A DNA stretch of 64,000 nucleotides from a virus (lineage: Duplodnaviria; Heunggongvirae; Uroviricota; Caudoviricetes). The position numbers and the translations under genes were made by a program. Positions 4,983 through 64,000 of the stretch are shown one piece after another. Below the pieces are notes generated by a model. The model ran no database searches. It was not told where the DNA came from and saw only the letters and a list, made by a program, of their open reading frames with translations. Within the stretch, counting starts at the first letter, position 1. Each line of letters opens with the position of its first letter. The DNA is taken from the IMG/VR virus record IMGVR_UViG_2938655777_000006, positions 80,983-144,982 of that record; one strand, written 5' to 3'.

Positions 4983-5693
4983 ATGAACCTGTTTAGAAAA
5001 GTGCTGAAGTATTTTAAACCCACAGAAATTATCGATGATGGGACTATGCATAATAATAAGTTGGAGTCCGTAAAAAGAGAGCTAGAGCGACAATACAATA
5101 TTTTTGAACTTCTACTTCCGAAAGAATTTATCTTAGAGTTTAGAAATAAATCATACATATCTGGTGGATGTATTTATAGTTTGTACCATGAGCATGAACC
5201 TAAAGATTATGACTTCTTCTTAACATCCAATGAGTTAGCAGAAAAACTCAAAACGTACTTTATGGATCAAGCTGGATATCATGGTTCAGATATTAGCGGT
5301 GGAACCTATAAAGGGTTACCATTAGTAATTACTAAAAATGCAATTTCAGTTGGCAAATTTCAAATTATCACTCAATGGATAGGTGAGCCTGAGGAAGTTG
5401 TTGGTGAATTCGATTTCAAACATAACCAATTCTATTATCACAATGGAGTTCTTGACGTTGCAATGTTGATTGACTGGTCGTATCTCAAGGGGAATAAGCT
5501 TTCATACAATGAAAATCGAGCAAGAGATATTGTTGGAACGATTTTGAGAACACCTAAATTTGTTGAACGAGGTATGACAATTACCCAAAGGGAAATGGCA
5601 AAAGTATTGTTGAGGCTTAATAGGGTTGGTTTTAGTGAAAAAGAAGTTGAGCAATTAGAAAGTCTTGATGTAGATAGACATTTTAGTTCATAG
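4983..5693 (+). CDS. putative nucleotidyltransferase (Pol-beta superfamily fold)
   Basis: G[GS]x10-13DxD-like motif ISGGCIYSLYHEHEPKDYDFFL, downstream acidic EFDF; RBS GAGGT 6 nt before ATG. Confidence 0.4.
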   Translation: MNLFRKVLKYFKPTEIIDDGTMHNNKLESVKRELERQYNIFELLLPKEFILEFRNKSYISGGCIYSLYHEHEPKDYDFFLTSNELAEKLKTYFMDQAGYHGSDISGGTYKGLPLVITKNAISVGKFQIITQWIGEPEEVVGEFDFKHNQFYYHNGVLDVAMLIDWSYLKGNKLSYNENRARDIVGTILRTPKFVERGMTITQREMAKVLLRLNRVGFSEKEVEQLESLDVDRHFSS

Positions 5694-7026: not shown

Positions 7027-7926
7027 TTGAGTAATAAGAAATCAACACATGACGACAAGCTCAGATTGATTGTGATTAAAACTAAAAGTAAGGTGTATGT
7101 ATCAGATAACATAAATAATAGTTCGTATCATTACACTAAAATTAAAGAACTTATATTCGACGGTGTTAAGCCAATTCCGACTTATAGAGAGGATTGGTTT
7201 GAGATTAAAGAGGTTCCAAAAATGATTCAAAAGAAATTGCCTTCAGAGCGAATTAATTCTAGATATGAACTTAAAGAAGCGCATTATAACACTGGATTAC
7301 CCAAAGTTCTCCAATCATCAGATTTTAGTGAAGAAGGACAGTATGAGTCAGTTTATGGTCTATATGAACTAAAATATGAATTGACTGACCCCAAACTAGT
7401 AGAAATAGAGTTTGAGTTAAATGTCATTGCAGAAGACTTGGATTTTGAAATTGTTCGAAGCGACTACAACCTGCAACACTCCGTTTTAGATCAAATCATT
7501 ACACATCCCGTGTTATTATCAACTCGTCCATGCACACTATCCAGACAAGAAAGCTACAATATTGTTCGCAAATACATAAAAGCAAATATTGATCCAAGGT
7601 GGGCAACCATTACAAGTGACTATGACTTTTGTTTTACTGTCAGTAAAAATATCGAACATGAACCAGAAGAATATAGAGTTAACGTAGGAAAGCGTAAACC
7701 AAAGTATGAGACAAGATATACAAGAACTAGAACGGTTAAAGTTTACGAGACTTCTCCTAAATCGTATGATAGATATCCTATTATTGAGCCATTTGTAGGT
7801 AAAAACGAAGAAGATTTGAAGATGAATATTCAAAAATTTTTGGACGAGCTTATGGAAGTAATCAATAGACCATTGATCGAGTGTGAACATTGTAAGGGAT
7901 ATGGAGTGATCAATTATGAAGTTTAA
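7027..7926 (+). CDS. hypothetical protein with C-terminal CxxCxGxG zinc-finger-like motif
   Basis: TTG start after aaaaggagagaagtaa; C-terminus ...[15 protein letters not shown]. Confidence 0.45.
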   Translation: MSNKKSTHDDKLRLIVIKTKSKVYVSDNINNSSYHYTKIKELIFDGVKPIPTYREDWFEIKEVPKMIQKKLPSERINSRYELKEAHYNTGLPKVLQSSDFSEEGQYESVYGLYELKYELTDPKLVEIEFELNVIAEDLDFEIVRSDYNLQHSVLDQIITHPVLLSTRPCTLSRQESYNIVRKYIKANIDPRWATITSDYDFCFTVSKNIEHEPEEYRVNVGKRKPKYETRYTRTRTVKVYETSPKSYDRYPIIEPFVGKNEEDLKMNIQKFLDELMEVINRPLIECEHCKGYGVINYEV

Positions 7927-8682: not shown

Positions 8683-8916
8683 ATGTTAATGGAACTATCT
8701 GAAATAAAAGATAGGATGAAAAAATGTTGTGTTGAGGCAATAATAAATACATACAGTTTAGACAATGAGGTAGCTAAAATAATTTTGAATAACTCATCAT
8801 GGAATGAACTTGTTGACGAGAGCGATTGCGATGAATTGAGATGGATTGGTCATTACCCTTTCGAATATTGGGCTGAGTATATATGGAATGAATATAAGGA
8901 GGCAATCAATGATTAA
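8683..8916 (+). CDS. hypothetical protein (77 aa)
   Basis: RBS ctggaggaatgttaATG. Confidence 0.4.
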   Translation: MLMELSEIKDRMKKCCVEAIINTYSLDNEVAKIILNNSSWNELVDESDCDELRWIGHYPFEYWAEYIWNEYKEAIND

Positions 8917-9358
8917 TATTGTTGAAGGTAATTTACTTGATGCAACCGAAGATATTATTGGACACCAAACGAACACTAAAGGTGTATGGGGGTCAGGAGT
9001 TGCTAAAGCAATAAAAGATAAATATCCAAATGCTTATCCTGCTTACCACGACCTCTGTTATGAATACGGAGATAAGTTGCTAGGTAACTGTTGGACAATT
9101 AAAGCGAGTGATAATAAGTTTATAGCTAATTTGTTTGGGCAAACAAACTATGGGAGAGATAAAAACAAGGTTTATACTCATTATGACGCGTTAAAGTTAA
9201 GTTTGGAAATCTTAAAAACCAGAGCTGAGAGGTTCGGATATTCGGTAGCATTACCTTATAATATTGGCTGCGGATTGGCTAATGGAGACTGGGATATTGT
9301 ATATGAGATTATTGATGCAGTGTTTAGTGATTATAAAGTAACACTTTATAAAATGTGA
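8909..9358 (+). CDS. macro-domain (ADP-ribose binding/processing) protein
   Basis: MINIVEGNLLDATEDIIGHQTNTKGVWGSGVAKAI... matches macro-domain N-terminal G-rich pocket pattern; ATG 8909 after ataaGGAGGcaatca. Confidence 0.5.
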   Translation: MINIVEGNLLDATEDIIGHQTNTKGVWGSGVAKAIKDKYPNAYPAYHDLCYEYGDKLLGNCWTIKASDNKFIANLFGQTNYGRDKNKVYTHYDALKLSLEILKTRAERFGYSVALPYNIGCGLANGDWDIVYEIIDAVFSDYKVTLYKM

Positions 9359-12453: not shown

Positions 12454-12604
12454 ATGAAGTGGGCGGTACAGTGTGGGTTTACTAAATTGATCACACCTGA
12501 ATACTATGAAATTCATATGGAAGATGACTGATAAAATTGGGCTTTTACGATGAAATATATTGAGATTAAGTTGGTACGAAAATTGAAGAAGGAGAAGTGA
12601 TAAC

Positions 12605-13069
12605 ATGGAGCTAGATAATTATTTGAATAATGCAGTTATCAGCAATGAACTGTCCAAGGCGATTAGTATTGCCGCAAATCTACATACAGGGCAATTTGAT
12701 AAGGGAGGAAATCCATACATACTTCATCCTCTCAGAGTAATGATGAAGATGGAAGATCGCACATCTATGATTGTTGCCGTGCTACATGACGTTTTGGAAG
12801 ACACTTTCTTTACTATTCATGATGCCGAGGATAGTGAATTTAGTGACAAAGTAATTGAAGCACTTAAGGCGATTACAAGAAAGAAAGACGAATCATACAT
12901 GGACTTCATTCGTCGCTGTAAGCAAAATGAATTGGCACGAAAAGTTAAGATTGCTGATATTGAAGATAACATGGATTTGAGTAGGATTGAGCAGCCAACA
13001 AAGAAGGATTATGAGCGAACAAAGAAATATGAAAAGGCATTAAAGGAGCTAATAAGCATTGAAGAGTGA
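12605..13069 (+). CDS. small alarmone hydrolase, RelA/SpoT-type HD domain ((p)ppGpp hydrolase-like)
   Basis: HTGQFDKGGNPYILHPLRV ... AVLHDVLEDT match the HD-domain signature of RelA/SpoT hydrolase domains; RBS gaAGGAGaagtga. Confidence 0.55.
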   Translation: MELDNYLNNAVISNELSKAISIAANLHTGQFDKGGNPYILHPLRVMMKMEDRTSMIVAVLHDVLEDTFFTIHDAEDSEFSDKVIEALKAITRKKDESYMDFIRRCKQNELARKVKIADIEDNMDLSRIEQPTKKDYERTKKYEKALKELISIEE

Positions 13070-13262
13070 TTTAGAATTGCTACAGCAGATTTATAAAGTA
13101 GCAAGTGCTCTGGATCTTGTATGTACTGTATTGAATCGTGGCGAAAGTACTATGAGTGGTGCAGAGTATGAAGAGTTAATGGAGTTGATGATTGAAGTGA
13201 AAGATTATTTAGAAGCTAAAGATCTGTAAAAGCATCGTTTTACCAAGATAGGAGAATACATA

Positions 13263-13547
13263 ATGGCAAAACAGAAGACCAATGTTCAGTATCAATTCCC
13301 ATCCAAAACAGACAATGTATTTCGCATTTACCTCAAGAAGAACCATTTGAACAATTTGATTGTAATTAGATTTGAGTTGCCAACTGGAGAGGAATACACA
13401 CGAAACTACGGAAACATTCCTTCAAATAAACTATTGGTTGGACACGAAGGAAAAGAATTTGAATTGTATATAGATGGCGACTATGTTGGACAAAGAGTTC
13501 TTATTGAGGCAGATGGGAATATGTTTAGATACGATGCTATTGAATAG
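13263..13547 (+). CDS. hypothetical protein (94 aa)
   Basis: RBS ataGGAGaatacataATG. Confidence 0.45.
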   Translation: MAKQKTNVQYQFPSKTDNVFRIYLKKNHLNNLIVIRFELPTGEEYTRNYGNIPSNKLLVGHEGKEFELYIDGDYVGQRVLIEADGNMFRYDAIE

Positions 13548-13593
13548 TTATTTAGTTAGTTGTACACTATAAGAACAAACGTTCTAGGAGTGT

Positions 13594-13986
13594 GTGTACA
13601 GCATGAGCAATTATATAACATCTAATGAGGACACTCAGCTTGTAATTGATTTTATACAGCTACCTTATGTGTTAGATGTGCTGGAGCTAAACTTAAAAAA
13701 GATTAAACAGTCTGACTTAAAAATGAAGGAATTGTTCGTGTTGTATCTAGAGGGCTTGCAAAGTAGAGTGTTGATGGATTTGAAAGTTGTTCGTCAAAAA
13801 ATGAGACAGCGAGGAATAAAGGTGTTTGATGGGGTTAGGTCAGACAAAGATTTGGTAACTGAGTACCTATGTCGTGGGTATACTCATACCATGCGATTCC
13901 TTTGGTCTAAGATCAGAAGAGATGTTGAAGTAAGAATAGCTGCCTATATGGAAATTGATATGAATAAACTGGTCAGGCTGGAATAA
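13594..13986 (+). CDS. hypothetical protein (130 aa)
   Basis: ORF in track (GTG 13594 or ATG 13603). Confidence 0.4.
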   Translation: MYSMSNYITSNEDTQLVIDFIQLPYVLDVLELNLKKIKQSDLKMKELFVLYLEGLQSRVLMDLKVVRQKMRQRGIKVFDGVRSDKDLVTEYLCRGYTHTMRFLWSKIRRDVEVRIAAYMEIDMNKLVRLE

Positions 13987-31464: not shown

Positions 31465-31608
31465 ATGCCGTTAATTGGTGGGATTATTATCCTTGCGATT
31501 CTGTTGTTTATATTGTGGTTTTTACTTAATCCAATTTTTAATGCTGTAGGATCAAAGGTAAATAAAATCAAAAAACTATTTAAAAATCAGGAGGAAGAAA
31601 ATGAATAA
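31465..31608 (+). CDS. small single-pass membrane protein (47 aa)
   Basis: Hand-translated MPLIGGIIILAILLFILWFLLNPIFNAVGSKVNKIKKLFKNQEEENE; RBS aaaGGAAGtttataag; stop overlaps next ATG. Confidence 0.35.
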   Translation: MPLIGGIIILAILLFILWFLLNPIFNAVGSKVNKIKKLFKNQEEENE

Positions 31609-32443
31609 CTTTAAAATCGGTGCATTTGTTACAGGCGGTATTATTTTGTTTGGAGTTATCTTAACTCCATTTTTTGTTACTACAATCGGTGCTGGTCATG
31701 CTGGTGTAGTCTATAACCGAAATGGTGGACTAGAACAACAAACATTGGGTCAAGGCTGGCACTTAGTTTCGCCATTTAAACGTGTAACTGAATATCCAAT
31801 TGCAACTGAAACGGTTAAATATGAAGATGTGACTATCGGTACAAAAGATGGTAAGCCAATTAAAACTACTTTTCAATACAACTACCATATTGAACCGACT
31901 AAACTTCCTGATATTTTTAATAAATTCAGAGGGGCTAATTCAGAGGTAATTGAAAATGGATTCTTAAAGTCTCGCTTAACTGAAATGGCAAAAGAGGTAA
32001 CGACTAAATATACGGTTCTTGAAATTCTTGGAGAGAAAAGCTCTGAGGTATCGCTGGGGATTCAAGAGAAATTTGCTGTAGACGCAAAAGAAATTGGCTT
32101 CATTGTTGAAGCAGTTACCTTTACGCCACCAGTACCAGATGAACAAACACAAAAAGCTATTCAGGCAAAAGTAGATGCACAGCAAAAACTAGAACAGGAA
32201 AAAGTAGAACTAGAGAAGGCTAAAGTTATTGCTCAAAAACAACGTGAAGAAGCTAAAGGTAAAGCCGATTCAGTTTTAATTGAAGCTGAAGGTCAAGCAA
32301 AAGCAAACCAAGTAATTAGACAGTCTTTGACTAATGAACTGGTTCAATATGAGACAGTGAAGAAATGGAACGGGACTTTGCCTCAAGTAAGTGGATCTAA
32401 TACACCAATTGTACAATTACCTACTGCAAATACAAGTAAATAA
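31601..32443 (+). CDS. SPFH/band-7 (prohibitin/stomatin/HflC-like) membrane protein
   Basis: N-terminal TM FVTGGIILFGVILTPFFV, SPFH core, C-terminal coiled coil AQQKLEQEKVELEKAKVIAQKQREEAKGKAD; RBS caGGAGGaagaaaATG. Confidence 0.6.
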   Translation: MNNFKIGAFVTGGIILFGVILTPFFVTTIGAGHAGVVYNRNGGLEQQTLGQGWHLVSPFKRVTEYPIATETVKYEDVTIGTKDGKPIKTTFQYNYHIEPTKLPDIFNKFRGANSEVIENGFLKSRLTEMAKEVTTKYTVLEILGEKSSEVSLGIQEKFAVDAKEIGFIVEAVTFTPPVPDEQTQKAIQAKVDAQQKLEQEKVELEKAKVIAQKQREEAKGKADSVLIEAEGQAKANQVIRQSLTNELVQYETVKKWNGTLPQVSGSNTPIVQLPTANTSK

Positions 32444-36800: not shown

Positions 36801-36837
36801 GTAAAATGCACATTTGACTGAGAGAAGAGGGATTGGA

Positions 36838-37269
36838 TTGAAACGATCAATAGCGTTAATTAGTTGTGGGAAAAACAAATCGTCTCAAAAAGCACAGGCG
36901 AAGGATTTGTATATCGGAGACTTATTTAAAAAGGCCAGAAAATACTCTGAGAAAGTGCATTCAGAATTCTATATTTTAAGTGCTCTTCATGAATTGGTGC
37001 AGCCAGAAAAATTATTAGAGCCTTATAACTACACGTTAAATGATTTAAACAAACAAGAAATTGTTTCATGGTCACATAATGTATATAAACAAATAAAAGA
37101 CATAATTAAAGAAGGAGAAGAAGTAGAAATTTATATATACGCAGGTGACAAGTATCGTAAATTTCTAGTTCCGCTCCTAGAAGCAGATGGACTAAAAGTG
37201 AATATTCCACTCAAAGGTTTGGGAATTGGACGGCAGCTATCATGGTTTAAAAACAACATCGGAGAGTGA
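36838..37269 (+). CDS. hypothetical protein (143 aa) adjacent to DpdA
   Basis: TTG 36838 6 nt after AGAGGG; conserved-looking N-term IALISCGKNKSS...DLYIGDLF; stop 5 nt before DpdA start. Confidence 0.4.
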   Translation: MKRSIALISCGKNKSSQKAQAKDLYIGDLFKKARKYSEKVHSEFYILSALHELVQPEKLLEPYNYTLNDLNKQEIVSWSHNVYKQIKDIIKEGEEVEIYIYAGDKYRKFLVPLLEADGLKVNIPLKGLGIGRQLSWFKNNIGE

Positions 37270-37273
37270 TTAA

Positions 37274-38086
37274 TTGAGGCTATATCTATCAAAATGCAAT
37301 GACAAGTTAAATACAAAAGAATTAAATACTGAATTTATTACACAAAGCGTATGCTTAAATCCGAAATATAAAGGAATCACCATAAAAAATCCTGATACAA
37401 AAATTTTAATGGATAGTGGAGCATTTCAGGATACAGATAAAGATAAGCGCATTTCTGTTGAAGAGGCATTAGAACGCCAATTAAAACTTGAAAAAAAGAT
37501 TGATATGGTTAGTGAAAGAATTGTTGCTTACGACCACATTGGAAATGTTGAAGACACAATTATGGCAAATAACTACTTAGTCTCTAGACGTGAAGAATTG
37601 AGACCAAGACAATTGGTGCTTATGATTCAGGGCGCAACAATTAAGGACTACATCTACTGCTTAATTGAAACTCTAAAAGTGGCTTCACCTGAAGATTGTA
37701 TTGGGTTAGGTGGGGTCGCAATGTCTGGAAGAGTGAATGATATAAAGTTCAAATTGCTGGATGCAATTAAAATTGGCTTACCAATCATTTGTAATTCTAA
37801 AGTTAAGGATGTTCACATATTTGGGGTGGGTACATTCAACGTATTAAAAGAAGTAGCATACATAAAAGATGTAATAGGAATGGCTGGAGTAGACACAGAG
37901 CAATTAAACATTAGTTGCGATACTTCATCATTTGAAATTATGTCCACAATGGGCAGTGTCATTGATGAGGTACAAGAGAAATGGGTTAAGGTGTACTCGA
38001 AACAGCAAAAATACATAGATTACCATCCAGCAGATTTAACAATTGAAAATATGAAGAAAGCAAAAAAGATAATTGAAAGAATTTAG
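37274..38086 (+). CDS. dpdA: DpdA-like tRNA-guanine-transglycosylase-fold protein (7-deazaguanine DNA transglycosylase candidate)
   Basis: TGT catalytic-region signatures LMDSGAFQ (cf. TGT ..TDSGGFQ), IGLGGVAMSG (cf. GGLAVGE), HIFGVGT (cf. YLMGVG); no Zn-binding CxCxxC tail, as in phage DpdA; TTG start 8 nt after GGAGAG. Confidence 0.6.
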   Translation: MRLYLSKCNDKLNTKELNTEFITQSVCLNPKYKGITIKNPDTKILMDSGAFQDTDKDKRISVEEALERQLKLEKKIDMVSERIVAYDHIGNVEDTIMANNYLVSRREELRPRQLVLMIQGATIKDYIYCLIETLKVASPEDCIGLGGVAMSGRVNDIKFKLLDAIKIGLPIICNSKVKDVHIFGVGTFNVLKEVAYIKDVIGMAGVDTEQLNISCDTSSFEIMSTMGSVIDEVQEKWVKVYSKQQKYIDYHPADLTIENMKKAKKIIERI

Positions 38087-38096
38087 GAGGAAATAG

Positions 38097-38618
38097 ATGT
38101 TTAGAATTATTCTTTATATTGCAGCAATCGTTATCGCAAATGTAGTTACAGCAAGTTTCCAGCCAATTACAGTCTGGAGATTTATTGTTCCGATGGGGAC
38201 TGTATTTATTGGCGCTACTTTTATTCTTAGAGATTTGGTGCAGCAAAAGTATGGGCGCAAAAATACGTATGTCATTATTTTCGTTGCACTGCTTTTTTCT
38301 GCGCTAGCCTCTTGGTCGTTGGGAGATACATTATGGATTGTAGCCGCAAGTGCGATTACTTTTATATTCTCAGAAACGTTTGATACAGAAGTGTTTACTC
38401 GGCTTAAGTGCTCTTTTGAGAAGAGAGTATTAATCAGTGGAACCATAGGTGGAGTTGTTGATTCTGGCTTGTTTGTAATTATTGGATTGTCGCCGTTGGG
38501 AGCTGGGTTTATTCCATGGGCAGCAGTAGGGTATGCAATCTTTGGTCAGGTAGTTGTCAAAACAGTCATGCAGTTTGTAGGCTATCTAACAGCCAGAAAG
38601 TTTATCAAGTTCAAATAA
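38097..38618 (+). CDS. yhhQ: YhhQ/VUT-family queuosine-precursor (preQ0/preQ1) transporter
   Basis: 6-TM protein; collinear with E. coli YhhQ motifs: ILRDLVQQKYG (cf. ATDLTVRIFG), TFDTEVFTRLK (cf. ILDVHVFNRLR), GGVVDSGLFV (cf. GNVSDTLAFF); RBS ttAGGAGGaaatagATG. Confidence 0.55.
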   Translation: MFRIILYIAAIVIANVVTASFQPITVWRFIVPMGTVFIGATFILRDLVQQKYGRKNTYVIIFVALLFSALASWSLGDTLWIVAASAITFIFSETFDTEVFTRLKCSFEKRVLISGTIGGVVDSGLFVIIGLSPLGAGFIPWAAVGYAIFGQVVVKTVMQFVGYLTARKFIKFK

Positions 38619-47694: not shown

Positions 47695-48522
47695 ATGACA
47701 ACTAAAAATAACAAGCAAGTAAAACAACCATTTTACGAAATTAATGAGACAGTTTATATCAAACCACTTAAGGTAAAAGGTGTTGTTAAGGGATATTTGG
47801 ATGGTTTGACAGTGGTAACATTTTTTATTAAAGGCAAAAGACGTACAAACAAGTTTGAAGACTCCTTGCTACGCCATTACAAAGAAAAAACAAATAAGTT
47901 AATCAGTATGCCAAAATTATTTAGAGGCGAACTTGTCCTTAATAAAAAAGATACAGAGACAATTACTAAAATCACTGAAATTTTAAAATCTTCAGTTAAT
48001 AACCCAATAGTACCTGAATCTATTTCCGACTTCTTTAAAGTACGCGAGTTCCAAAAAGCGTTTAATTGCCCTGCTCCAGATGTGCCAACTATCCTGTCAG
48101 ATAAATTGGCAATCAATCGTGCCTCTTTTATTCTTGAGGAAGTGATTGAGTTGTTGTATGCTACTGCTGGCAACAAAAAGAGATTCGATAAGTTTTTTGC
48201 TGAATTAATCTTGAATGCAGAAGAAACATATAAAAAACAACTCACTAAGCCTTTCCCTGAAGATCGTCTAATTGGGCAAATCGATGCTCTTATTGATATC
48301 AAGTATTTTGCTGAAGGAGGACTTGTTGAGGCTTCTGTTGTTCCTGATAGAATTTTTGATTTGGTTCATCAAGCAAATATGTCAAAAATTTTTCCCGATG
48401 GGAAGCCACATTATAATGAAGTAGGCAAGGTAATTAAACCTGAAGGATGGGAAGCTCCAGAACCTAAAATCGAAGAAGAAGTGAAGCGGCAAATTAAACT
48501 TGGCTCTAAACGATTCAATTGA
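47695..48522 (+). CDS. MazG-like NTP pyrophosphohydrolase (all-alpha) with N-terminal extension
   Basis: C-terminal region ...FQKAFNCPAPDVPTILSDKLAINRASFILEEVIELLYA... resembles MazG/dimeric dUTPase-type fold; RBS ataaGGGAGccaaaatacatATG. Confidence 0.45.
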   Translation: MTTKNNKQVKQPFYEINETVYIKPLKVKGVVKGYLDGLTVVTFFIKGKRRTNKFEDSLLRHYKEKTNKLISMPKLFRGELVLNKKDTETITKITEILKSSVNNPIVPESISDFFKVREFQKAFNCPAPDVPTILSDKLAINRASFILEEVIELLYATAGNKKRFDKFFAELILNAEETYKKQLTKPFPEDRLIGQIDALIDIKYFAEGGLVEASVVPDRIFDLVHQANMSKIFPDGKPHYNEVGKVIKPEGWEAPEPKIEEEVKRQIKLGSKRFN

Positions 48523-49981: not shown

Positions 49982-50503
49982 GTGAAGAGTACGCTTTTCT
50001 TCATAACAAACATTGTACCTACGATCATATTGGGATTAATGATGAGGTATGGTCGTCGAATATTCAAAGAAGATTTTTCTCAAATAAATTCAAAATTAAA
50101 TAGAGAATCAATCTTCAATTCATTTTGTTTTGCCATTATGGGCTTCTCGATTATATCAAAATTATCTTCATTAGTGGTAGCACAGCAACCAGTAACACCG
50201 CATATTCAAACACCGATTATGTATGTGTATGCCATAGCATTTAGTCCTGTTTTTGAAGAATTAATTTGTAGAAAGTATATATTCACGAAACTACATAAAC
50301 GCTACAACTTTTGGCTGTCAGCAATTTTAAGTTCCATCATATTTGCAATTCCACACTTTAACGCAGTTAATTTTATAGCATACGTGTTTATTGGAATTGT
50401 ATGGAGTTGGTATTATAAAAAGACAGATAACATCCTAGTACCAATATTCAGCCATTTATTATTTAATTACTTCGTCATTTTATTTATGTCACTGAGAGGA
50501 TGA
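49982..50503 (+). CDS. CPBP (CAAX protease/Abi) family intramembrane metalloprotease
   Basis: Motifs EELICRKYIF (EExxxR), FAIPHF (FxxxH), HLLFN (HxxxN) in multi-TM protein; GTG start; strong SD AGGAGG at 49943 instead serves an out-of-frame TTG 49957. Confidence 0.5.
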   Translation: MKSTLFFITNIVPTIILGLMMRYGRRIFKEDFSQINSKLNRESIFNSFCFAIMGFSIISKLSSLVVAQQPVTPHIQTPIMYVYAIAFSPVFEELICRKYIFTKLHKRYNFWLSAILSSIIFAIPHFNAVNFIAYVFIGIVWSWYYKKTDNILVPIFSHLLFNYFVILFMSLRG

Positions 50504-59103: not shown

Positions 59104-59172
59104 GTATTACATTGTACGACACTGTTGAGCTACTGTCATACTTTGATACTCATTGTATTTGGAGGTAATATC

Positions 59173-60138
59173 ATGGCTTTAACTGTAGTGAAAAATTTAA
59201 GTGTGATTGATCTCGGATTTAGCTACACCAAGGGGAAAACAGGCAATACAATGTATCTTCAGCCTTCTATCTCCGGCGATGTTCAACCAATGTTTGAAGA
59301 AAACATCAAACCAAATGATTTTTTCTATAACGACGAATTATTTGTAGGGAATGTCGCCCTAAGGCACAGTGAGATTAAATATTTCACACTTAAAAATAAT
59401 AAGAGTGAAGCGATGACTTCTGACGTTTTGCTGAAAACTGGATTAGGATATTTAAATAAAAACAACCCATTTAATATGGTAACTGGACTACCTGTATTAT
59501 TCTATTTCAATCAAAAAAGTGATATGGAAAAGATGTTGGATCGAATAAACAGAGAGGATGCTTACAGCCTTAAGAAAGGCAGGGGAAATTATTCAGAAAT
59601 TAAACTTCATATAAATAAATATAAACTTGTTCCACAGGGATATGGCATAGCTATGGATTATCTGCTAGACAATAAAGGAAAGATCCAAAAAGTACATATT
59701 GCAAATAAAAAGGTATTGGTAATTGACTTAGGATTCTATACGTTAAACCTTTTGGGTTTAGATAAACTAGAAATAATGAAAGAATCAACAAGCCTTCTTT
59801 TGGGTGTTGAAAAGGCATATCAGTTATTGCGTAAGTACTTAATGAATGCTATAGGCAAGGCTCCAGCTATTTATGAACTGGACAAGTATGTGATAAGCGG
59901 TATATACGAAGGACGAAATATAAAACCATTAATAGCAAAAGCATTTAAATCACTAGCGATCCAAATTCAAAATGAGGTTGACGGACTAAATATAAATTTT
60001 GATTATTATCTAATTGGTGGAGGTGCAGCACATCAGATTTATAACACACTTAACTTCAAGAATAAAGTACTTTTCGATCAGCTTTCACAAATAAGAGGGT
60101 ATGAAAAAATTGGAGTTAGAGCATGGGGAAGAAACTAG
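59173..60138 (+). CDS. actin-like ATPase, ParM/Alp (StbA) family
   Basis: Phosphate-1 VIDLGFSYTK, phosphate-2 VLVIDLGFYTLNL, adenosine YYLIGGGAA, collinear with ParM; ATG 59173 7 nt after GGAGG. Confidence 0.55.
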   Translation: MALTVVKNLSVIDLGFSYTKGKTGNTMYLQPSISGDVQPMFEENIKPNDFFYNDELFVGNVALRHSEIKYFTLKNNKSEAMTSDVLLKTGLGYLNKNNPFNMVTGLPVLFYFNQKSDMEKMLDRINREDAYSLKKGRGNYSEIKLHINKYKLVPQGYGIAMDYLLDNKGKIQKVHIANKKVLVIDLGFYTLNLLGLDKLEIMKESTSLLLGVEKAYQLLRKYLMNAIGKAPAIYELDKYVISGIYEGRNIKPLIAKAFKSLAIQIQNEVDGLNINFDYYLIGGGAAHQIYNTLNFKNKVLFDQLSQIRGYEKIGVRAWGRN

Positions 60139-60401: not shown

Positions 60402-60584
60402 GTAGGCTTCGGCCTACAATACATAAAATGAGGAAAGCTACAAGGATTAAAATCAAAATTAAACTGAATATCTGAGGTTCTAAGTGAATAAGTGTTATGT
60501 TAATGGCATTAAATATTTGATAAAACATATCAGCATGTCATAGCCCATATTAGGCATATACTGTCTCAACGAGAGGTGATTACT

Positions 60585-61559
60585 GTGGATGAAAACTCCA
60601 GAAGGATTACTGTTAATGAATCAAGAATTAATGTTGTCTTTAAAAGTCAAGAAGCTTATGAAACAATATCTGAGCAAAACGAAGAAGTTCCATTAACCAG
60701 TAATCATTACGAATCCGCAGCAGACATATTTAAGGATTTAGACGAAATGATTGGCCTTGAAAAGGTAAAAGATCTTGTGTATGAGATTTATGCATTGATA
60801 CAGGTGCAAAAACTTAGAAGTGAAGAAGGTTTGAAAAATAGTAGTCAGGTATACCATATGATATTCAAAGGAAATCCCGGTACAGGGAAGACGACAGTGG
60901 CAAGAATAGCTTCTAAATTGCTAAACAGAATGGGCATCCTTAGTAAAGGTCATCTGATTGAGGTGGAACGAGCAGACTTAGTTGGAGAATACATCGGTCA
61001 CACCGCACAAAAAACACGAGATCTTGTTAAGAAAGCTATGGGAGGAATCCTTTTTATCGATGAAGCCTACAGTTTGGCTAGGGGAGGTGATAAAGATTTT
61101 GGAAAGGAAGCAATAGACTGTCTTGTAAAAGTCATGGAGGATAGAAGTGATGATTTAATAATTATCCTTGCAGGCTATCCAGATGAGATGGGGATGTTCC
61201 TTAGAACAAATACTGGTCTTCCATCCCGGTTTCCAATACAAATAGATTTTCAGGATTACACAACAGATGAGTTAATGTTAATTGCAGTAAAGATGGCATA
61301 TGAAAAAGACTACAACATTACCTCTGATGCACTGATAAAACTAAGAGAAATAATTCAGATTGAGAAAGACTCAAGAAGTAATTTTAGTAATGCACGCTAT
61401 GTTCGTAACGTGATTGAAAAAGCGATTCGGCACCAAGCTGTCAGAATAATGAGTAGACGTGTAAAAATCTCTAAGCAAAATTTAATGGATATTTTGCCAC
61501 GAGATATATCAAATTCAAATATTGAAATGAATAAAAGAGAGTCTGTCATAATGCCATAA
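60585..61559 (+). CDS. AAA+ ATPase, SpoVK/CbbX-like
   Basis: Walker A GNPGTGKTT, Walker B ILFIDEAYSL, sensor/arginine-finger region; GTG 60585 5 nt after GAGAGGTGA. Confidence 0.6.
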   Translation: MDENSRRITVNESRINVVFKSQEAYETISEQNEEVPLTSNHYESAADIFKDLDEMIGLEKVKDLVYEIYALIQVQKLRSEEGLKNSSQVYHMIFKGNPGTGKTTVARIASKLLNRMGILSKGHLIEVERADLVGEYIGHTAQKTRDLVKKAMGGILFIDEAYSLARGGDKDFGKEAIDCLVKVMEDRSDDLIIILAGYPDEMGMFLRTNTGLPSRFPIQIDFQDYTTDELMLIAVKMAYEKDYNITSDALIKLREIIQIEKDSRSNFSNARYVRNVIEKAIRHQAVRIMSRRVKISKQNLMDILPRDISNSNIEMNKRESVIMP

Positions 61560-61633: not shown

Positions 61634-61752
61634 AAGCCTTATAAATATTAAAGGAGGTGAGAGGTGCAAAGTGTTCATATAGGATTTAATTAAAATCAAT
61701 ATTTTATAGGAAAGCGAGGTAAGCAACAATAGATAACTATGTAATTTATCAC

Positions 61753-64000
61753 TTGCATTCTGATGATAGTAATCCATCGACATCAATGGCTGTAGACTCA
61801 GTTACTAAATTTAAACAATACATAGACGCAGCAGAGCAAGCACAGATGAGTACAATTTGTTTTTCAGAACATGGGAACGTGTTTAACTGGGTTAAAAAGA
61901 AACAAACAATTGAAGAAAAAGGTATGAAATATATCCATGCCAACGAAGTGTATCTAACTGAACATAACGACAGAGAACGAGGATTAATTCGAGACAATTT
62001 CCACTACATGCTTATAGCCAAAAATTGGGACGGTGTAAAAGAGCTAAATCGATTAACCTCTATATCTAACAATAAAGAAGATGGGCATTATTATTACAAT
62101 CCAAGATTAACATTCGATGAGTTATTTAATACTTCAGACAATATCATTATGACATCTGCATGTTTAGCTTCACCACTATGGAGAGCAATAAAAAACGATA
62201 ACAAACAGATGTACAACCGACTAATGGATTTCTTCATGAAAAACAAACATCGGATGTTCTTTGAAATTCAGTATCATACACATCCTGAACAAAAGTCGTT
62301 TAATCAGCACTTATACAACATTTCTAAAGAGACTGGAATTCCACTTATTGCTGGAACGGATACACATGCACTTAATCAAGCTCATGCAGAAGCCAGAACC
62401 ATTCTTATGAGAGCAAAGGGTGCTACATATGGAGACGAAGACACTTTTGATTTAACATTCAAAACTTATCCCGAATTAGTTAAAATGTTTGAGGAACAAA
62501 ATTCAATACCAAGAAGTGCTTACCTTGAAGCAATTCATAATACGAATGTTATGGCGAACATGATAGAAGAATTTACGATCGATTCATCTCCAAAGTACCC
62601 AAAACTATATGATGATCCAGAAAAAGTTTTTAAGGAAAAGATAAATGTTGGTGTAGTTGAAAGAGGAGTAAACAAGTTTGAAGCAGAAAAGAAACATCGT
62701 TATTTTAAAAGAATTAGAGAAGAGTTTGATACATATAAGAAAGTTGGAGCAATTGATTATATGCTGCTTCAAAAAGATGTGGTCGATTGGGCGCATAAAA
62801 ATGGGATATATCAAGGATATGGACGTGGTTCTGTAAACGGAAGCTTGATCGCCTATCTATTGAAGATTACAGAGATGGATAGTATTAAGCATAAGCTAAA
62901 TTTCTTTCGCTTCCTGAATCCAGAGCGCATTTCACTCGCTGATATAGATTTAGACTGGCCTCCTTCAAAGAGACAAGATGTAATTGACTATGTAGCAACT
63001 ATTCCGGGTATTTACTTCTCTGAAATTATAACTTTTAATACGGTGGCTTTAAAAGGAGCAATAAGAGAAGTTGGTAGGGCGCTCAATATGGATTTATCAG
63101 TTGTAGATGGAATCGCAAAGGCTGTTTTTAAAAATGATAACAGGAAAGATGAAATCGATAAGCAATACCGCGAAAGCTATCCTGATTTATTTAAATATGT
63201 AGACTTGGTTCAAGGAGTTATTGTAAGCATAGGATCACATCCGTCTGGATATGTAGTTTCACCTATAAGTCTGCAAGATAATATAGGATTATGTTACACA
63301 AAAGAAAGTAAATATCCTGTGAGCCAGATTAATATGAAAGAGCTTGATAGCCTTAACTATGTCAAGCTTGATATTTTAGGTTTAGATAATATTGAAATCA
63401 TCAATGAAACTTGTAAGTTAGCGAATATTCCTCGTTTAGTCCCTGACAATATGAACGTAGATGACGAAGAAGTTTGGAGTTCTATTAGAGAGTCAGGCTT
63501 AGGAGTTTTTCAATGGGAGTCAACAAGTGCTGGAGCATATTTAAAAGACTTGTTGAGTCCTGAAACAATAAAAAGAATAAAAGAACAATACCCGAATTTC
63601 AGCTATATCCAATTGTTCTCAATTGGAAATGCTGCCATTCGTCCTTCTGGAGCTTCGTACAGAAATGATTTATCGCAGGGGATATTTAAAGATCATGGAT
63701 ATGATGCATTAAACGCTCATCTGAAGAGTACACTTGGATATCTTATATTTCAAGAATCAATAATGCAGTTCTTGGTAGACTTTTGTGACTTTACAATGCC
63801 TGAAAGCGATTCTGTTCGACGAGGGATGAGTAAAAAAGAGGGTACGGAAAAAGAGCTTCCAAAGATAAGAAAAAGGTTTATTGAGAAGCTAATGCGCGAT
63901 TACAGTGAGACCGAAGAAGCAGCTACTGCCGTCCTTGAACCATTTATTCAAGTTATCATAGATGCTAAAGATTATGGCTTCTCTGACAACCACTCAAACC
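61753..64000 (+). CDS. dnaE: DnaE-like DNA polymerase III alpha subunit (3'-partial, continues past window); start uncertain
   Basis: PHP YHLHSDDS, GRGSVNGSLIAYLL, catalytic ADIDLDW, GSHPSGYVVS, LDILGL, IFQESIMQ, RRGMSKK; frame opens at 61723, only in-frame candidates ATA 61729 (8 nt after GAGGT), ATT 61744, TTG 61753. Confidence 0.6.
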   Translation, partial: MHSDDSNPSTSMAVDSVTKFKQYIDAAEQAQMSTICFSEHGNVFNWVKKKQTIEEKGMKYIHANEVYLTEHNDRERGLIRDNFHYMLIAKNWDGVKELNRLTSISNNKEDGHYYYNPRLTFDELFNTSDNIIMTSACLASPLWRAIKNDNKQMYNRLMDFFMKNKHRMFFEIQYHTHPEQKSFNQHLYNISKETGIPLIAGTDTHALNQAHAEARTILMRAKGATYGDEDTFDLTFKTYPELVKMFEEQNSIPRSAYLEAIHNTNVMANMIEEFTIDSSPKYPKLYDDPEKVFKEKINVGVVERGVNKFEAEKKHRYFKRIREEFDTYKKVGAIDYMLLQKDVVDWAHKNGIYQGYGRGSVNGSLIAYLLKITEMDSIKHKLNFFRFLNPERISLADIDLDWPPSKRQDVIDYVATIPGIYFSEIITFNTVALKGAIREVGRALNMDLSVVDGIAKAVFKNDNRKDEIDKQYRESYPDLFKYVDLVQGVIVSIGSHPSGYVVSPISLQDNIGLCYTKESKYPVSQINMKELDSLNYVKLDILGLDNIEIINETCKLANIPRLVPDNMNVDDEEVWSSIRESGLGVFQWESTSAGAYLKDLLSPETIKRIKEQYPNFSYIQLFSIGNAAIRPSGASYRNDLSQGIFKDHGYDALNAHLKSTLGYLIFQESIMQFLVDFCDFTMPESDSVRRGMSKKEGTEKELPKIRKRFIEKLMRDYSETEEAATAVLEPFIQVIIDAKDYGFSDNHSN

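Follow-up and report, generated by a model that had tools for sequence, protein, structure and literature searches.

The gene described here lies in a window of 64,000 nucleotides (positions 80,983 to 144,982 of the IMG/VR record IMGVR_UViG_2938655777_000006), part of what gene content identifies as an integrated SPbeta-like prophage of Paenibacillus; unless stated otherwise, all positions refer to this window. At 12605-13069, an open reading frame (ORF) encodes a protein of 154 amino acids (aa), hereafter designated as the hydrolase. An initial annotation had proposed that this ORF specifies a phage-borne, stand-alone alarmone hydrolase reduced to the HD domain of RelA/SpoT proteins. The proposed boundaries agree exactly with the ORF list, and every HD motif quoted is present in the translation (H27-T-G-Q30, G35-N-P-Y-I-L-H41-P-L and L60-H61-D62-V-L-E65-D66-T67). 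The ORF signal is far above chance. The gene and the codons of its metal-binding and catalytic residues are arranged as follows, with conservation given for the nearest 120 homologues:

12605..13069, plus strand: coding sequence of the hydrolase, a single-domain HD protein and putative Aph1-family small alarmone hydrolase (ORF list; ATG start, 154 aa)
12590..12594, plus strand: ribosome-binding site AGGAG, read directly from the sequence, 10 nt 5' of the ATG
12725..12727, plus strand: codon of H41, the first metal-ligand His, in the motif Y-I-L-H-P (invariant)
12785..12802, plus strand: codons of H61-D62-V-L-E65-D66, the HD metal motif and the ED catalytic pair (H61, D62, E65 and D66 in 120 of 120)
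12956..12970, plus strand: codons of D118-I-E-D121-N122, with the last metal-ligand Asp and the ribose-contacting Asn, equivalent to Aph1 D110 and N114

Database searches retrieved 2324 homologues at E<=1e-10, and the 120 best of these defined the conservation of each position. H27, H41, H61, D62, E65 and D66 are invariant in this set, while D118, D121 and N122 are found in 119, 118 and 119 sequences, respectively. The metal-binding and catalytic residues with the spacing typical of RelA/SpoT homologues (RSH), namely H41, H61-D62, E65-D66, D118 and N122, are all there; they align with those of Aph1, Rel and SpoT, and are invariant or at least 99% conserved. H41 is the residue that we take to correspond to H53 of RelSeq.

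Profile searches gave a concordant picture, with one marginal failure. The hydrolase matches PHROG 990, 'metal-dependent phosphohydrolase' (E 1e-52), and the N-terminal hydrolase part of TIGR00691 spoT_relA (E 7e-15; model positions 1-104 of 687). The match to Pfam HD_4 (PF13328) is just short of its threshold: the score of 25.6 bits (E 1.1e-5) stands against a gathering cut-off of 27.2, and the precomputed match is flagged as 'weak'. The generic Pfam HD profile reached E 0.17, and no PADLOC model matched the hydrolase.

Among all Protein Data Bank (PDB) sequences, the best match is 7SMG, the structure of Aph1 from a Bacteroides caccae prophage (phmmer E 2.9e-33), with 44-45% identity over 137 residues and no gaps. 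Rel/SpoT hydrolase domains follow at E 1e-11 to 1e-8, and then MESH1 and other small alarmone hydrolases (SAHs). An AlphaFold2 model, built with the 120 homologues, has a mean predicted local distance difference test score (pLDDT) of 94.2 and a predicted template-modelling score (pTM) of 0.89, and comprises exactly eight helices. These helices fill residues 3-150, and therefore leave no space for a synthetase or regulatory domain. As modelled, the protein is an HD domain alone, without synthetase, TGS or ACT domains, in agreement with the initial annotation and with the limited stretch of TIGR00691 that is matched. Foldseek also placed 7SMG first, with a template-modelling score (TM) of 0.86 (query-normalised) or 0.94 (target-normalised), a root-mean-square deviation (rmsd) of 1.0 A and 44% identity; MESH1 (TM 0.69, rmsd 3.3 A), SpoT, RelSeq and the P. 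aeruginosa SAH came after it, at TM 0.6-0.76. The first HD protein from outside the RSH superfamily appeared at E 0.49. Every significant match, whether by sequence or by fold, is to an RSH hydrolase domain or an SAH, so that the early placement in the RelA/SpoT superfamily holds.

Aph1 (7SMG) is the closest solved relative of the hydrolase, and the family to which it gives its name is defined on the C-terminal ca. 53 residues (Aph1 Y90-E143), with the HD motif excluded (PMC10083569). Over this family-defining segment, 26 of 52 positions are identical without gaps (Y98-L149 of the hydrolase, Y90-L141 of Aph1; counted from the 7SMG alignment). Aph1 is an eight-helix HD enzyme, in contrast to its (p)ppGpp-hydrolysing relatives, which have at least nine helices including a C-terminal helix 9 (PMC10083569); the model of the hydrolase shows the compact eight-helix topology of Aph1. 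Both proteins are prophage-borne and have the HD/ED catalytic residues in common, together with the six specificity residues described below. They differ in their hosts, Bacteroidota for Aph1 and Bacillota for the hydrolase, and in a 13-residue N-terminal extension of helix 1 that the hydrolase shares with its Paenibacillus prophage relatives. As the Aph1 homotetramer forms via the N- and C-termini (PMC10083569), this extension could change an interface of the Aph1 type. Altogether, the hydrolase very probably belongs to the Aph1 family.

The substrate preference of Aph1 has been ascribed to a signature of six residues, D24, R96, D116, R119, K133 and Y134 (PMC10083569). The 7SMG alignment has no gaps and a uniform shift of +8 residues, which makes D32, R104, D124, R127, K141 and Y142 their counterparts, and the signature is complete in the hydrolase (6/6). 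The corresponding codons and their conservation in the same 120 homologues are:

12698..12700, plus strand: D32 (Aph1 D24); Asp in 119 of 120
12914..12916, plus strand: R104 (Aph1 R96); 120 of 120
12974..12985, plus strand: D124-L-S-R127 (Aph1 D116 and R119); D124 in 98 of 120, with Asn in 19, and R127 in 120 of 120
13025..13030, plus strand: K141-Y142 (Aph1 K133 and Y134); K141 in 98 of 120, with Arg in 20, and Y142 in 120 of 120

The region around D32 reads GQFDKGG in the hydrolase and GQIDKAG in Aph1, versus GQFRKNG in S. aureus Rel and GITRKSG in SpoT (PDB alignments), so that D32 replaces the guanine-contacting Arg of (p)ppGpp hydrolases. Aph1 and 12 of 12 tested homologues hydrolyse ppApp, with a modest activity on ppGpp in only two of the 12; wild-type Aph1 has no detectable ppGpp activity, and gains it in the D24R+R119A double mutant (PMC10083569). 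In the same enzyme, N114 contacts the ribose and mutation of the HD motif abolishes protection (PMC10083569). By every sequence and structural criterion at hand, the hydrolase is thus a predicted adenosine 3'-pyrophosphohydrolase of the Aph1 family, and its family signature makes adenosine 3'-pyrophosphates its likely substrates, a point we hold with good confidence. The initial annotation had left the choice between (p)ppGpp and (p)ppApp open; its (p)ppApp half agrees with this prediction, and its (p)ppGpp half is contradicted by D32.

A protein identical to the hydrolase is on record from Paenibacillus sp. EKM208P (GCA_011066295.1; contig JAAMNT010000006.1 of 406.5 kb, 93,610-94,074), where GenBank names it 'GTP pyrophosphokinase'. 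Many homologues bear this label, or 'bifunctional (p)ppGpp synthetase/hydrolase', in GenBank and UniRef despite having no synthetase domain. The label 'GTP pyrophosphokinase' is wrong, and reflects a systematic misannotation across the Aph1 family.

Phage-encoded relatives are broadly distributed, with tblastn detecting homologues in 540 GenBank phage records, all at less than 60% identity. Two groups of them have been studied experimentally, and a third set of characterised proteins comprises other SAHs. The first comprises immunity proteins. Aph1 is encoded directly 3' of its cognate MuF-fused Apk2 toxin, against which it acts as an immunity protein (PMC10083569), and the best matches in phage databases (41-45% identity) are the MuF-Apk2 immunity hydrolases of Streptococcus pneumoniae, Pasteurella multocida and Mannheimia haemolytica prophages, which turn pppApp into ATP and can substitute for one another across strains (PMC12226406). 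The top Pasteurella phage matches belong to experimentally studied Apk2 systems (PMC12226406), while the homologue in Streptococcus phage phiARI0462 (44% identical) lies two genes 3' of that for a 527-aa MuF 'minor head protein', a single small ORF separating the two. In the Streptococcus, Pasteurella and Mannheimia prophages, the immunity genes form part of the head-morphogenesis module and closely follow the MuF toxin gene. Such a context is absent for the hydrolase, which has no toxin gene nearby and is surrounded by anti-defence and replication genes.

The second comprises gp220 of Salmonella phage PVP-SE1, a stand-alone phage SAH of the PbcSpo subfamily that, when co-expressed in E. coli, neutralised all five classes of toxic small alarmone synthetases (toxSAS), namely FaRel, FaRel2, PhRel, PhRel2 and CapRel (PMC7229694). 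Jimmy et al. proposed that incoming phages bypass alarmone-based abortive infection with such hydrolases (PMC7229694). Like the hydrolase, gp220 is an orphan in its phage genome, with no adjoining synthetase; the two proteins are 41.7% identical over residues 13-154, an identity which suggests that the hydrolase may belong to the phage-hydrolase group of gp220 (PbcSpo). Five of the six Aph1 signature residues are found in gp220, which differs by a Gly at the position of R104 and by a longer C-terminus. It also differs in its carrier, a virulent myovirus of a Gram-negative host, and in its neighbourhood, as the gene adjoins a thymidylate kinase gene and not an anti-defence cluster. The FaRel, FaRel2 and PhRel2 families of toxSAS are found in Firmicutes (PMC7229694), and they are therefore plausible targets in the phylum of the host.

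The third comprises SAHs acting on tRNA. ATfaRel of Cellulomonas marina, the type IV SAH antitoxin of a FaRel toxSAS, resembles the hydrolase in its presumed strategy, since it degrades the product of the toxin without binding the toxin, and differs in being part of a three-gene toxin-antitoxin operon. Four of the five toxSAS classes neutralised by gp220 pyrophosphorylate the CCA end of tRNA, and ATfaRel and MESH1 strip the resulting 3'-pyrophosphate in vitro (bioRxiv 10.1101/2021.04.30.441581). MESH1, the P. aeruginosa SAH and the Rel/SpoT domains share with the hydrolase the HD fold and the catalytic H...HD...ED...D...N residues, but have at least nine helices, act on (p)ppGpp or are promiscuous, and carry an Arg where the hydrolase has D32; their matches are also much weaker (E 1e-11 to 1e-3; TM 0.6-0.76). 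Chromosomal homologues were seen as well: in Brevibacillus, 140-aa proteins (ca. 60% identical) are encoded near a KptA/Tpt1 RNA 2'-phosphotransferase, a NADAR-domain protein, RlaP and a Lon/ChlI-type ATPase, which are typical genes of RNA-repair and conflict islands.

The element carrying the hydrolase gene has a G+C content of 34% in the window, where all non-nested ORFs of at least 100 aa are on the plus strand. Its replication genes encode a DnaB-type helicase (with a YorH-family gene 5' of it), a primase, a YorK-like RecJ exonuclease and an ATP-dependent ligase. Its nucleotide-metabolism genes, with a cluster at 40-50 kb, encode NrdD/G, NrdE/F/I, ThyA, dihydrofolate reductase (DHFR) and a MazG-like pyrophosphohydrolase, and further genes encode YopX, a sigma factor and a ParM-like actin. 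Just upstream of the window (contig positions 72,827-74,541) are genes for a DndB-family protein and an MrpR-type protein, followed by an AgrB-like gene. MrpR is the recombinase-like family of SPbeta master repressors; because of this upstream gene and of the YorH-like, YorK-like RecJ and YopX genes, the element is regarded as SPbeta-like. A close relative of the locus is found in the 5.29-Mb chromosome of P. polymyxa, with an 82% identical hydrolase. In contrast, a megablast search with the 10-16 kb region of the window matched no GenBank phage, and the RecJ-like protein is at most 40% identical to its counterparts in large Bacillus and Alicyclobacillus phages. The prophage is thus without a close sequenced phage relative. 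The genes flanking the hydrolase that could be assigned, or that adjoin it downstream, are:

4983..5693, plus strand: Gad2-like nucleotidyltransferase (PF26128 among the precomputed matches; nucleotidyltransferase PHROGs)
7027..7926, plus strand: full-length Gad1 (PF25705, E 2e-120)
8846..9358, plus strand: DarG-like stand-alone macrodomain protein (Pfam Macro, E 8e-7; PADLOC DarG, E 3.4e-16; NCBIfam antitoxin_DarG, E 3.3e-12, far under the equivalog cut-off)
13059..13986, plus strand: three small downstream ORFs (gene calls, PF26325), of 56 aa (13059..13229, overlapping the hydrolase stop), 94 aa (13263..13547) and 130 aa (13594..13986, YhjD-like)

Gad1 is the Gabija anti-defence protein 1. 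The Gad2, Gad1 and macrodomain genes lie 3-7 kb upstream of the hydrolase gene on the same strand, and the Gad1/Gad2 pair suggests an anti-defence island in the prophage. As side observations, the related locus of P. silvae contains two Gad2-family genes, and no DarT gene is found near the macrodomain gene, whose product may be an orphan anti-DarT enzyme that removes ADP-ribosylation from DNA. Directly 5' of the hydrolase gene are genes for proteins of 60-83 aa with no assigned function. PHROG, NCBIfam and PADLOC searches with the neighbours of the hydrolase matched only the YhjD-like ORF, to phrog_34234 (unknown function) and weakly to HEC-02B (PADLOC, E 0.0045). The region is mosaic among three Paenibacillus prophages. 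A 2.4-kb block (an 80-aa ORF, the hydrolase, and the 56-aa, 94-aa and YhjD-like ORFs) is 86.6% identical at the nucleotide level to the P. polymyxa element; with the P. silvae element, alignment at this level is limited to the hydrolase gene, the Gad2 gene and one further gene. That the hydrolase gene was kept amid such turnover suggests selection. Around it, 14 promoter-like sites were counted versus 12.6 expected, which is the level of chance, and no terminator was detected; no tRNA gene or Rfam family was found in the window.

The absence of a partner toxin was addressed in several ways. A Pfam scan found no match to RelA_SpoT synthetase or MuF profiles among the 127 ORFs of the window. Used as tblastn queries, the phiARI0462 MuF and Apk2tox sequences produced only chance matches (in the window, the 8 kb upstream and two related prophage loci), as did PDB sequence searches in which three nearby proteins of ca. 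200 aa were considered as hidden synthetases.

From the ORF, its domain, fold and family signature, the genomic setting and the lack of a nearby toxin gene, all of which were observed, we infer the following activity, specificity, timing and role. By family resemblance, H41, H61, D62 and D118 would hold a Mg2+ or Mn2+ ion that, with the E65-D66 pair, would allow hydrolysis of the 3'-pyrophosphate of adenosine nucleotides (pppApp or ppApp to ATP or ADP), and a pocket of the Aph1 type (D32, D124, R127, K141 and Y142) would pick adenine and exclude guanine. Context and precedent suggest that the enzyme would be made during phage development, and would serve as an antitoxin mimic by removing what toxic RSH synthetases of the toxSAS or Apk type produce. 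This product is free (p)ppApp, which exhausts the ATP supply and blocks the synthesis of purines; judging from other SAHs, the 3'-pyrophosphorylated A76 of tRNA is a second probable substrate. Abortive infection, or a toxin attack, by RSH synthetases would then fail. In parallel, the neighbouring DarG-like macrodomain would mimic the antitoxin against DarT. Taken as a whole, this proposal of an orphan Aph1-family, (p)ppApp-type hydrolase that counters toxSAS or Apk-type toxins during phage development appears reasonably probable; for counter-defence as the biological role, we would put the chances at about even. A narrower version can be formulated, in which the gene serves a Gram-positive temperate phage in genuine counter-defence, set in a Gad2/Gad1/DarG-like/Aph-type island with two orphan antitoxin mimics, and its main substrate during infection is tRNA A76-pyrophosphate and not free (p)ppApp. 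The two mimics of the island would then enzymatically undo DNA ADP-ribosylation by DarT and adenosine or tRNA 3'-pyrophosphorylation by toxSAS, respectively. This version is tentative, and we incline somewhat against it.

Several points weigh against the proposal as a whole. The hydrolase falls marginally under the Pfam HD_4 threshold, although this narrow miss concerns a single profile and counts for less than the PDB, NCBIfam, PHROG and fold matches. Early expression is deduced from gene order alone, with the promoter scan at chance level. In vitro hydrolysis of tRNA 3'-pyrophosphate is documented for MESH1 and ATfaRel only, neither of which is a demonstrated Aph1-signature protein. The search for a synthetase toxin spans 64 kb plus 8 kb upstream, and one could be encoded in another part of the element or by the host. 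Lastly, Aph1 confers immunity to a phage-borne toxin, as do the nearest homologues from Streptococcus and Pasteurella phages; none of them is a counter-defence factor.

The alternative that survives best shares the chemistry of the proposed function, and differs from it just in timing and beneficiary: as an 'orphan immunity' gene of lysogenic conversion, expression from the prophage would guard the lysogen against (p)ppApp-synthetase toxins of competitors, whether delivered by type VII secretion (LXG), by contact or by phage injection of MuF proteins. There are known examples of RSH synthetases exported with LXG and MuF domains, the element is integrated with a close relative in the P. polymyxa chromosome, Aph1 guards against the unrelated type VI secretion toxin Tas1 (PMC10083569), and the interchangeability of hydrolase-type immunities between strains (PMC12226406) points the same way. 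The hydrolase gene is, however, co-oriented within a long run of lytic-cycle genes 3' of the MrpR-type repressor, a position which suggests repression in the lysogen. It is not set apart from the adjoining genes by any promoter or terminator (with the scan at the level of chance), and neighbouring Gad1 and Gad2 serve the phage, not the host. On these grounds, protection of the lysogen is unlikely.

Less probable still is that the hydrolase is the immunity protein of a (p)ppApp-synthetase toxin (Apk2/MuF-type polymorphic) of the same prophage, shielding the producer cell as Aph1 does. The arrangement of Aph1, its closest characterised relative, and of the phiARI0462 and Pasteurella homologues speaks for such a function. 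Against it, neither profile searches of the window nor tblastn searches of the window, the 8 kb upstream and two related prophage loci revealed a synthetase or MuF sequence, and the neighbours big enough for a synthetase have no similarity to any solved RSH. The gene is also found among replication-side and anti-defence genes, outside any head-morphogenesis module, and only 0.4% of Aph homologues adjoin a MuF gene (PMC10083569).

The initial annotation had offered two roles for the enzyme, toxSAS neutralisation and a reset of the stringent response. The former, with gp220 as precedent (PMC7229694), is favoured here over the latter because the Aph1 family is mostly (p)ppApp-specific and D32 stands in place of the Arg. 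A (p)ppGpp hydrolase that lowers host alarmones, and so sustains translation and replication for the phage, would be in line with membership in the RSH hydrolase superfamily, with the ppGpp-enzyme names that homologues carry in source databases and with the modest ppGpp hydrolysis of 2/12 Aph homologues (PMC10083569). Yet the hydrolase combines D32 with a conserved R127, and Aph1 needed both D24R and R119A for ppGpp hydrolysis (PMC10083569), which makes a stringent-response role very doubtful. An HD phosphohydrolase for some other substrate, either a phosphatase of NADPH or 3'-phosphoadenosine 5'-phosphosulphate (PAPS) like its structural relative MESH1, or a deoxynucleoside mono- or triphosphate hydrolase of the YfbR/OxsA type that would suit a prophage rich in nucleotide-metabolism genes, is scarcely credible: the Aph1 match is far stronger than that to MESH1, the gene is located outside the nucleotide-metabolism cluster, and no YfbR/OxsA-type match, which the initial annotation had named as the outcome that would count against an alarmone hydrolase, emerged from Pfam, NCBIfam, PDB sequence or fold searches.

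Other genes of the window deserve mention. A trio at 36814..38618 encodes a DUF6884 protein (36814..37269, E 1e-44), a 270-aa protein (37274..38086) with no Pfam, PHROG or NCBIfam match, and a Vut_1/YhhQ-like membrane transporter (38097..38618). As transporters of the YhhQ type take up queuosine precursors, the trio could be a candidate 7-deazaguanine DNA-modification module. The MazG-like nucleotide pyrophosphohydrolase gene (47695..48522; PRA-PH domain, phrog_671) adjoins those of ThyA and DHFR; such enzymes are sometimes linked to (p)ppGpp degradation in the phage literature. Downstream of the gene for a ParM/ALP-type actin-like protein (59125..60138; ALP_N, E 1.6e-18; phrog_691 'partition protein') lies one for a SpoVK/CbbX-like AAA+ ATPase that has an AAA_lid_6 domain (60576..61559). 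This pair is an odd cargo for an integrated prophage, and may point to a plasmid-like stage or to the positioning of phage DNA. Genes for an SPFH/Band-7 membrane protein (31601..32443) and a CAAX/Rce1-like intramembrane protease (49982..50503) are found amid phage replication genes. The end of the window (61700..64000) has no listed ORF and appears to be the start of a long ORF running past it, whose translation, inspected by eye, is a candidate PHP-domain DnaE-type DNA polymerase (YorL-like).

The enzyme family, its structure and specificity code, the occurrence of SAHs in phages and the neutralisation of toxSAS have already been published, so that the hydrolase is not a discovery of kind. 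The protein itself is uncharacterised and misnamed in GenBank, and its placement in an anti-defence setting of the SPbeta type is useful but incremental. A literature search for phage alarmone hydrolases as anti-defence factors returned only one genome-description paper speculating on function, and, in the literature searched, the defeat of toxSAS by phage hydrolases has been shown so far by heterologous co-expression only. With these findings, the misleading name 'GTP pyrophosphokinase' is corrected for a protein without a synthetase domain, and a clear, testable specificity prediction, ppApp over ppGpp, is derived from sequence. The presence of an Aph1-type hydrolase in Paenibacillus SPbeta-like prophages, beside validated anti-defence genes, backs the island-guided search for counter-defence genes and offers a tractable Gram-positive system in which to ask if toxSAS immunity is actually overcome by orphan phage alarmone hydrolases in the course of an infection. 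Should tRNA A76-pyrophosphate prove to be the substrate, the Aph1 family would extend from nucleotide hydrolases to phage RNA-repair enzymes.

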